From a virus (Monodnaviria; Loebvirae; Hofneiviricota; Faserviricetes; Tubulavirales; Inoviridae): DNA of 6,041 nt. The stretch spans positions 1 to 6,041 of IMG/VR virus record IMGVR_UViG_2645727593_000001; one strand, given 5' to 3'. The first letter of the stretch is position 1. Each line of letters starts with the position of its first letter. The position numbers and the translations under genes were made by a program. The notes beneath the pieces are model-generated. The model did not search any database, had not been told where the DNA came from, and saw only the letters and a list, made by a program, of their open reading frames with translations. This document shows, in pieces, positions 3,834-5,483 of this stretch.

Positions 3834-5483
3834 TCAGGACCGAAGAACAATAAAGAATGAAAGCATGGAGCCAATCAGCGTCATAATCACCCTGAAAGTG
3901 GCCCTGACTTCATCGGTATCAAGCAGCACACAAAAAGTATCCAGTTGATAATCTTTATTCCAGATATTGAATGTAAAGACAGGACACTGCCCCCGTGGAA
4001 TTGTCAGTGAAAAATCACGCGCAGAAGGCCACATATTCCACAATGGAGAAATGAATGATGAAGGCTCAGGAGATGAAATATCAGGCGTATCCACTGAAGG
4101 TGCAGTGCCAAAGTCATTTGACACAGTCACGTTAACATTTACCGTAGCATTACCTGTTACAGTGGTACTGCCAGAACCTGTTCCGACTCCAGCTCCTGTA
4201 CCGCTACCCGTTCCAGTGCCTGTACCCGTTCCAGTGCCCGTACCCGTTCCAGTGCCTGTACCCGTACCGCTGCCTGTACCCGTACCGCTGCCTGTACCCG
4301 TACCGCTGCCTGTACCCGTACCGCTGCCTGTACCCGTACCGCTGCCTGTACCCGTACCACTGCCTGTACCCGTACCACTGCCTGTACCCGTACCACTGCC
4401 TGTACCCGTACCACTGCCTGTACCCGTACCGCTGCCCGTACCTCCAACGGGCTTAAAACCGGGGTCAATAACAGGAGGGGTATATTTACCTCCAGAATTG
4501 CTGGTATCACCACCTGGTGTCGGAGGAATAGCAATAACACCAGATTCTGTAAAACTTGCAGAATCACCGATGCGGAGGTCTACCGTAGAACGATAATTGT
4601 CTACGTCAGCAGAGGAATATTTCAATAAAAACGAAGATATCCCGCTATATTCAGAGAGGCCATCTAATTGTTCAGTCAGCCCGTTAAGAATATCTGCAAT
4701 ATCCTGAGATGCCAGATTATTTCCAGAGAAAGAAGGCACGTGGAGAGACGATGAGAATGGATTTTCAGTGGTTGCTGCCTCACAAGTAGAATTACCGTCA
4801 GAATAAAACAGAACCTGACCGTTATCACAAAAAACAGAATCCTCACTTAACGTTACTGACCAGAATACAAACGAACTCTGGGACCAGGAACCTCGAAAAT
4901 AATAAGCGTAGTAGAATCTGTACCACTCATTATCAACGTCACTCTTCGGAGGAGTATAATAAGACGACTGAAGCGAGGATTTTTCTTCAGGAGGTAAGCA
5001 CTGAATAACCCGCGCAGCAGCAGAAAACGGCGAAGTACTGGTAACGTAGCAATTATCAAACCCGCCATGCCAGGCCTTGACACCCGCACTCATGGCTGGA
5101 GTGTAATAAAACGCGTTATAGCCGTTTTTATCTAAAACCAATTTTGCCACCTCCTCAGCAAAAGGTTTTCCTGCGGCATAAATTCCAAGACTGACTGTAG
5201 TTACACCAAGACCGTAAGCCAGAGTACTCCACGACATTGCTGAAGCAGAAATCCCGGCAGATGCAGCATAATTTGATGCAAAAGACGCTGCCGCACGTGA
5301 ATATCCTGATAACGTTGCCGAAATAGATGAGGCGCTGGCCCCCATTGCAGATAATTTGCGATTAATAATACCGGACAATTCAGAAGAAAATGTTGTGGTA
5401 GTCAGTGTCGCTGTTTCAGCACAGGCGTGATTTGTTAACAAAACGTACAATAGCGACACAGAAATATTTTTCAAAAAACTCAT
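3834..5483 (-). CDS. pIII-like adsorption / minor coat protein with Gly-Thr-Ser repeat linker
   Basis: 549 aa. Signal peptide '[22 protein letters not shown]', an N-terminal domain with cysteines, a (GTGSGT)n linker of about 80 aa, and a C-terminal hydrophobic anchor '[19 protein letters not shown]'. Lies downstream of the major coat gene. Confidence 0.8.
4195..4440 (-). repeat. Tandem hexamer / 18-bp repeat array encoding the (GTGSGT)n linker of pIII
   Basis: Plus strand has 'cccgtaccgctgcctgta' five times perfectly (4261-4350), 'cccgtaccactgcctgta' four times (4351-4422), one variant (4423-4440), and three 'ccNgtacccgttccagtg'-type units (4201-4254). It is in frame within pIII and generates shadow ORFs in other frames. 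Confidence 0.9.

Follow-up and report, generated by a model that had tools for sequence, protein, structure and literature searches.

We analysed a 6,041-nt stretch of inovirus DNA (positions 1 to 6,041 of IMG/VR record IMGVR_UViG_2645727593_000001; hereafter the window), in which a 549-aa open reading frame (ORF) at the gene position of the filamentous-phage protein pIII carries an array of near-identical 18-nt units. We consider it very probable, at roughly 85%, that this array is a coding minisatellite, or variable-number tandem repeat (VNTR), in the pIII-position gene of an Escherichia coli filamentous prophage integrated at dif, in which misaligned repeats change the length of a protein tether in frame. 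Three properties of a VNTR were found: near-identical units with a length divisible by three, copy-number polymorphism restricted to the array, and changes in steps of whole units.

Tandem Repeats Finder (TRF) reported a single strong array at 4205-4442, with a period of 18, 13.2 copies, 96% matches, no indels and a score of 378. Its core consists of 13 clean head-to-tail units (Table 1), each in register with the codons of the 549-aa gene and encoding Gly-Thr-Gly-Ser/Thr-Gly-Thr. The units comprise one copy of type A (GGTACGGGCAGCGGTACG), four of type B (GGTACAGGCAGTGGTACG), five of type C (GGTACAGGCAGCGGTACG) and three of types D/E (GGTAC(A/G)GGCACTGGAACG, also written GGTACA/GGGCACTGGAACG), and nine of the 13 differ only by AGC versus AGT. 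Chance cannot account for 234 nt of unbroken 18-mers at 96% identity. Together with a degenerate 3' end, which is common to nearly all alleles described below, the core forms a Gly-X tract at 4167-4442 that encodes 92 aa (residues 348-439 of 549). The tract is made up of 46 strict dipeptides, with Gly at 46 of 46 odd positions and Thr (31), Ser (13), Ala (1) or Val (1) at the even ones. An initial annotation of the window had described about 14 copies at 4195-4440, nine of them identical or one base apart; the unit table agrees with this count, and those coordinates lie 2-4 nt off the unit boundaries, the full Gly-X tract being wider.

Of 5426 complete E. coli genomes, 27 have the gene, in 45 copies with 96.8-99.4% identity. 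Forty-two of these copies were tabulated together with that of the window, giving 43; the IS110-type gene of isolate AF34, which shares its protein accession with the AF60 copy, was added later. The 43 copies carry 26 array alleles of 12 lengths, ranging from 186 to 348 nt (31-58 Gly-X pairs; 62-116 residues). The flanking coding parts have a fixed length in all copies (N-terminal, 1041 nt; C-terminal, 333 nt), with indels found only in the array. Length differences between alleles are always multiples of 6 nt, all 43 copies have an intact ORF, and the 18-nt register of the window is kept by 22 of the 26 alleles, with three others displaced by 6 nt and the remaining one by 12 nt. Sixteen pairs of alleles are related by one contiguous indel, and the block gained or lost is always 18, 36, 54, 72 or 90 nt. 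The window allele equals the E700025 allele plus one GGTACAGGCAGCGGTACG unit, and lies one base apart from the JNE21-003 allele. The expectation that copy-number changes would stay in frame was thus borne out by the intact ORFs and by the multiples of 18 nt separating single-indel neighbours. A phase-variable on/off contingency locus operating by frameshift was rejected, since all alleles differ by multiples of 6 nt and every ORF is intact.

Grouping the copies by their flanks, identical across all 1374 nt within a group, gave 19 haplotypes, of which five carry more than one array allele. On one of them, the array measures 186 nt in AF34 and AF60, 300 nt in cS51a and 330 nt in RIVM_C039227. 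Because identical flanks carry different arrays, change in the array outpaces the accumulation of point substitutions in 1.4 kb. The alleles vary both in how many units they contain and in the sequence in which the unit types follow one another, and different lineages have expanded different unit types (GSGTGT versus GTGTGT).

It is extremely improbable that the true array is the same everywhere and that the differences in length arose as artefacts in the assembly or sequencing of a hard repeat. Such an origin would draw on the failure of short-read assemblies at this position, most members of the two relevant protein clusters being partial, and on the indel errors of long reads that are common in repeats. 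However, all copies remain in frame with the step sizes described above, the flanks are free of indels, and the alleles vary in unit-type order. Moreover, clonal isolates that were assembled independently gave identical arrays: five clonal pairs share alleles, including 48956/47258, 100117/100248, E500002/E600003 and AF34/AF60. Twelve genomes have their multiple copies in tandem, and in 10 of these the arrays are identical as well. Since clonal pairs and tandem copies share alleles, random assembly or sequencing error is not the source of the variation.

The exact window protein was absent from a collection of 15 billion proteins; its cluster has 162 members and a sister cluster, at 64% identity, has 184, both consisting mostly of 'partial' proteins from draft genomes. 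Partial proteins stop within the tract (for example ...KPVGGTG and ...GGTGS), and others begin within it. Because contigs stop inside the array, short-read assemblies break there. The initial annotation had suspected that such assemblies may collapse the array; among the partial cluster members no evidence of collapse was seen, and breakage was found instead. The gene of the sister type (cluster P0002, taken from the draft E. coli assembly GCA_012716795.1, L033) gave no megablast match in the 5426 complete E. coli genomes, and replication of the polymorphism test on it was dropped for this reason. The sister pIII type is either rare or systematically lost or under-represented in finished assemblies.

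In the mechanism that we propose, misaligned pairing of near-identical neighbouring units would add or remove whole units, as neighbouring units are identical or one base apart. The mispairing could take place during chromosomal replication, during rolling-circle phage replication or in recombination between copies. Events would come in multiples of 6 nt, usually 18, so that the frame and the flanking domains survive and the tether length alone changes. A tentative alternative holds that the allele diversity arose mainly by homologous or unequal recombination and gene conversion, and not by replication slippage, through exchange between co-resident prophages (in tandem dif arrays, or with a second, IS110-type copy) or with superinfecting phages. 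In its favour, the prophages occur in tandem arrays of 2-4 copies, AF34 and AF60 each hold two prophage backbones with arrays of 186 nt and 348 nt, and tandem arrays of YpfPhi rearrange dynamically (PMC4266046). Between the two copies in S21EC, a pair of neighbouring hexamers has been replaced (3 nt) at unchanged length, which resembles a conversion patch, and an internal block of units ('deacabc') recurs across several lineages. In contrast, the closest alleles are related by gain or loss of a single unit in a homogeneous block, a classic slippage signature that needs no partner, and single-copy (IS110-type) prophages are equally variable. The whole-unit steps and this equal variability favour slippage, while the S21EC patch and the recurrence of motifs in several lineages suggest that recombination contributes or may do so; the two processes are not mutually exclusive.

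Several observations weigh against the reading of the array as a slippage-prone minisatellite. The rate of change is bounded and not extreme, given that clonal isolates and most tandem copies are identical. RIVM_C037166 has two copies with arrays of 240 and 294 nt, and because their flanks also differ this case is ambiguous, two infections being as likely as change in situ. The 'deacabc' block fits either inheritance or recombination. Of the hotspot proposed by the initial annotation, the variability has stood, as copy number is far from identical among the related genomes; the array data do not distinguish slippage from unequal recombination. Finally, the array DNA folds no better than shuffled sequence (z = -0.14), a result that led us to reject a hairpin or quasi-palindrome mechanism. 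As the array DNA lacks unusual secondary structure, misalignment between direct repeats is the simplest reading.

RefSeq genomes label the product of the gene a 'hypothetical protein'. It has no match among Pfam or NCBIfam families, and PHROG 7187/3942 match only its C-terminal part. Its first 22 residues, read from the sequence, form a signal peptide that is followed by E. An AlphaFold2 (AF2) model was calculated from 92 family sequences, an earlier model from six sequences being unusable (predicted local distance difference test score, pLDDT, 39.8). In the N-terminal region, pLDDT was 80-97 over about residues 30-90 and 130-310. The Gly-X tract, at a pLDDT of ~40, was modelled without secondary structure between well-predicted domains. 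In the C-terminal domain (pLDDT 75-92), a helix at 474-489 is followed by a beta-hairpin at 503-514 between Cys500 and Cys518 and by a second helix at 524-548. The sole 19-aa hydropathy peak of the protein, at 528-548, lies within this terminal helix. The earlier description of the repeat as a linker between domains fits this succession of signal peptide, structured N-terminal region, coil tract, and Cys-hairpin-Cys with hydrophobic helix. The Gly-Thr/Ser tract is most likely an unstructured tether from the structured N-terminal region to the C-terminal domain, which would anchor the protein in the inner membrane and afterwards in the virion tip.

An exhaustive HMMER search of 1.84 billion proteins found 217 representative homologues of the C-terminal domain (C-domain). 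The domain lies at the extreme C-terminus in 149 of 150 listed homologues, of which most full-length ones have 400-600 aa, and Cys500 and Cys518 are invariant across the family. A word-indexed search with the C-domain alone gave no matches, and a search with the full-length protein was swamped by unrelated Gly/Thr/Ser low-complexity proteins (TonB linkers, phage tail proteins), only P0001-P0004 and P0046 being real relatives. The N-terminal region is confined to E. coli, in two protein clusters. As it has no known fold relative, its receptor-binding role is one that we infer.

The protein was compared with g3p (pIII) of the Ff phages (M13/f1/fd). Searches of the PDB by phmmer and with the family profile returned low-complexity or chance matches only, and Foldseek against PDB and BFVD gave no match at E <= 0.001 with a multi-domain query whose floppy linker lowers sensitivity. 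In hhalign, the family matched M13 g3p with 11% probability over the last 50 residues; both hhalign and hmmsearch aligned the right region (Cys-hairpin-Cys and helix), not significantly. Pfam Phage_Coat_A matches one of 92 C-domain family members. Three members of the family carry modules of Ff g3p: an N1-like domain in which the cysteine pattern is conserved occurs in P0004 (Salmonella) and P0156, and P0224 has the N2 motif YDA..NGK.R.CAFHSGFNE.PF.C. Because Ff N1/N2-like modules have been shuffled onto the same C-domain family, the C-domain probably plays the role of the pIII C-domain. The name pIII given in the initial annotation is supported by gene order, architecture and domain shuffling, while Pfam and structure comparison provide no link to Ff g3p. 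We designate the gene a putative pIII by position and architecture, and not by homology to Ff g3p. As a putative pIII, its product would sit at the virion tip and have an adsorption-type role.

Nearly all close C-domain relatives have a Gly-rich tract 89-117 residues from the C-terminus, whereas most of the distant ones have none. An orthologue with 46% identity, from a hipA-side inovirus (L030), has at the same linker position an unrelated array of 42 nt x 3.7 with 97% match, and relatives from Salmonella and Burkholderia have shorter GS/GT tracts. A peptide query of GTDB species genomes for relatives gave no match.

These comparisons bear on a further explanation, in which the tract has a structure or a modification of its own, or is under diversifying selection, and its length and Thr/Ser composition are functional. 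Instead of a random coil, it could be a stalk carrying O-linked glycans or a silk-like beta structure to which the Gly-X stretches of the five tip subunits all contribute, or the tether length could be adaptive and tunable in 18-nt steps. We regard this as unlikely. The strict Gly periodicity, with X nearly always the hydroxylated and beta-prone Thr or Ser, would suit such a function, as would the minimum of at least 31 dipeptides in every allele and the expansion of different unit types by different lineages; the Drosophila per Thr-Gly repeat, which changes by 18-bp cassettes, is under selection for length (PMC4109182). However, the AF2 model has no secondary structure and low confidence over the tract, and the lower bound of 31 dipeptides could simply reflect stable degenerate end units. 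Moreover, the Gly-rich sequences of relatives at this position are quite different and many distant relatives lack any, which argues for a generic spacer.

A flexible tether is in keeping with what is known of related proteins. In inovirus receptor-binding proteins, flexible linkers rich in glycine connect the N-terminal binding domains with a C domain that is integrated in the capsid (PMC10175506, PMC12477597), and such linkers are regarded as general for this class (PMC12477597). In f1 pIII, Cys354-Cys371 pin a beta-hairpin of the C domain before the C-terminal helix, and glycine-rich linkers tether N1-N2 (PMC10175506). The 549-aa protein resembles Ff pIII in gene position, signal peptide, N-terminal domain(s), Gly-rich linker, and a C-domain with Cys-pinned hairpin and hydrophobic helix, and its C-domain family includes members with Ff N1-like or N2-like domains. 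It differs from Ff g3p in having no detectable sequence or fold homology with it, and in having one long linker, of Gly-Thr/Ser dipeptides, in place of two of (E)GGGS; its linker is also encoded by near-identical DNA units that are highly polymorphic in nature. We found no report of natural repeat-length polymorphism in the Ff pIII linker. Coding VNTRs are familiar from surface proteins of bacteria and phages, such as the collagen-like region of Bacillus anthracis BclA, and serve as loci for multiple-locus VNTR analysis (MLVA). The BclA-type VNTRs likewise have in-frame tandem units, copy-number differences between strains and an extended spacer of a surface-exposed protein, and differ in repeat chemistry and host protein.

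The closest conceptual parallel is the Thr-Gly region of Drosophila per, where the mutation rate is ~10^4 times the point rate and common alleles lie three pairs (18 bp) apart (PMC4109182). The two share the ACN GGN / GGN ACN hexamer code, minisatellite behaviour and isolength alleles that differ at silent sites (PMC4109182). Unlike the prophage protein, per encodes a eukaryotic clock protein, in which the length of the repeat demonstrably affects temperature compensation and follows a selective cline. The array is a real and fairly ordinary coding minisatellite in the linker of a pIII-type protein, of a kind already known.

The recognisable genes of 1203-6041 all lie on the minus strand and make up the morphogenesis half of a filamentous phage (inovirus), in the order major coat, 549-aa gene, DUF2523/pVI, Zot/pI and secretin/pIV (Table 1). 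The same order is found in the 27 E. coli genomes and in the relatives L030 and L031 (Salmonella enterica). A dif-like XerCD site (minus strand) at the left end, AGTGCGCATAATGTATATTATGTTAAAG, has two mismatches to E. coli dif, with 0 such sites expected by chance. Window positions 1-942 are 100% identical to the region adjoining hipBA/dif in enteropathogenic E. coli (EPEC) E2348/69, and the identity stops inside this site. Judged by the site and by where the identity ends, the prophage is integrated at dif, as are CTXphi, CUS-1 and YpfPhi; it shares with them a position between the ydeQ/fim region and hipBA, tandem copies (2-4 among the related E. coli genomes) and a Zot-containing morphogenesis module (PMC4266046). 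It differs in that the structural module of the window also rides a backbone with an IS110 transposase, and the window gene is found in just 27 of the 5426 complete E. coli genomes. Since megablast of the whole window and tblastn of the 549-aa protein against a phage collection gave no match, no named phage can be assigned.

Table 1 Features of the window. Positions count from the first nucleotide of the 6,041-nt window.
Feature	Position	Strand	Basis or remark
Major-coat-like gene (pVIII position), upstream of the pIII-position gene	5793-6041	-	PHROG 2186/6548; weak Pfam Phage_Coat_B
56-aa ORF	5488-5658	-	Between the major-coat-like gene and the 549-aa ORF
549-aa pIII-position gene (minor coat / adsorption-type protein)	3834-5483	-	ORF list, synteny
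Signal peptide and N-terminal region, aa 1-347	4443-5483	-	Putative receptor-binding part
Core array, 13 clean head-to-tail 18-nt units	4209-4442	-	TRF and unit table
3' part of the Gly-X tract, degenerate (two units plus 6 nt left over)	4167-4208	-	
C-terminal domain, aa 440-549, and stop codon	3834-4166	-	
By-product ORF PVPVPV..., 209 aa	3967-4596	+	Held open by the repeat, strand opposite the gene
By-product ORF VRVQAV..., 136 aa	4157-4567	-	Other frame of the coding strand
pVI-like gene, directly downstream of the pIII-position gene	3529-3816	-	DUF2523, Ace-like PHROGs
Zot / pI assembly ATPase gene	2459-3517	-	Zot family
Secretin (pIV) gene, final gene of the prophage	1203-2462	-	
dif-like XerCD site, prophage/chromosome junction	916-943		26/28 bases as in E. 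coli dif

Two long ORFs in other frames of the array, PVPVPV... and VRVQAV..., which the initial annotation had called spurious, are both present in the ORF list. They were rejected as real genes and are by-products of the repeat, being low-complexity repeat translations inside a gene whose own frame has homologues.

The Zot/pI gene has repeats of its own. At 2706-2725 lies a second small in-frame VNTR with a 9-nt unit, TCTTCGCCG (Ser-Ser-Pro); the window and 34 related copies have two such units, and five copies (48956, 47258, E100341) have one. At 2783-2843, TRF reported an imperfect A-rich repeat (25 nt x 2.4, 77% match, 17% indels).

The structural module from coat to secretin was found on two distinct prophage backbones (L007, L013, L014, L016-L018, L020, L024 and L026-L029 contrasted with L001-L006 and others). 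One, of the dif/XerCD type, has an RstA-like initiator and is frequently present in 2-4 tandem copies. The other has an IS110-family transposase ('RNA-guided' in one record), a replication endonuclease and a phospholipase-D protein, and is inserted at ybiB/hcxB or yahJ/yahK. Isolates AF34 and AF60 hold both types. In JNE070796 (L006), the major coat gene has a 1-nt frameshift in both tandem copies, with the pIII-position ORF and its array intact, and this prophage is probably defective.

In the Salmonella enterica relative (L031), positions 5001-6329 encode a pIII with an Ff N1-like domain of the TolA-binding type, and a TolA-domain protein (PF06519) is encoded at 10255-10740, just after the secretin gene; it could be a decoy or a superinfection-exclusion factor. 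On the chromosomal side of the window, positions 1-402 (plus strand) encode a 133-aa fragment of a retron St85-family reverse transcriptase, whose truncation explains a score of 114.8 bits where the cutoff is 235 bits. It is adjoined by a site-specific-integrase pseudogene at 526-981 (minus strand). In E2348/69, the counterparts of both adjoin an ABC-three-component defence system, and the pair looks like a decayed defence island beside dif.

The finding does not overturn current understanding, and is of practical value for assembly, annotation and typing. Short-read assemblies break naturally at the array, and those who annotate or type these prophages should expect this; because of these breaks, the putative tip protein appears in databases mostly as a 'partial hypothetical protein'. 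With 26 alleles in 27 genomes and the window, the array could serve as a high-resolution prophage marker. It also provides a natural linker-length series for testing tether length in filamentous-phage infection, and is relevant to phage-display or retargeting designs that keep or replace the Gly-rich linker. If the unlikely case of an adaptive tether length were true, the population would keep a standing spectrum of pIII reach, from 62 to 116 residues, matched to O-antigen or capsule depth or to receptor geometry, and the array would be a 'contingency' element for host range that tunes length in frame. In this wild inovirus, the linker of an adsorption-type protein is the fastest-changing part of the gene, between flanking domains of fixed length.

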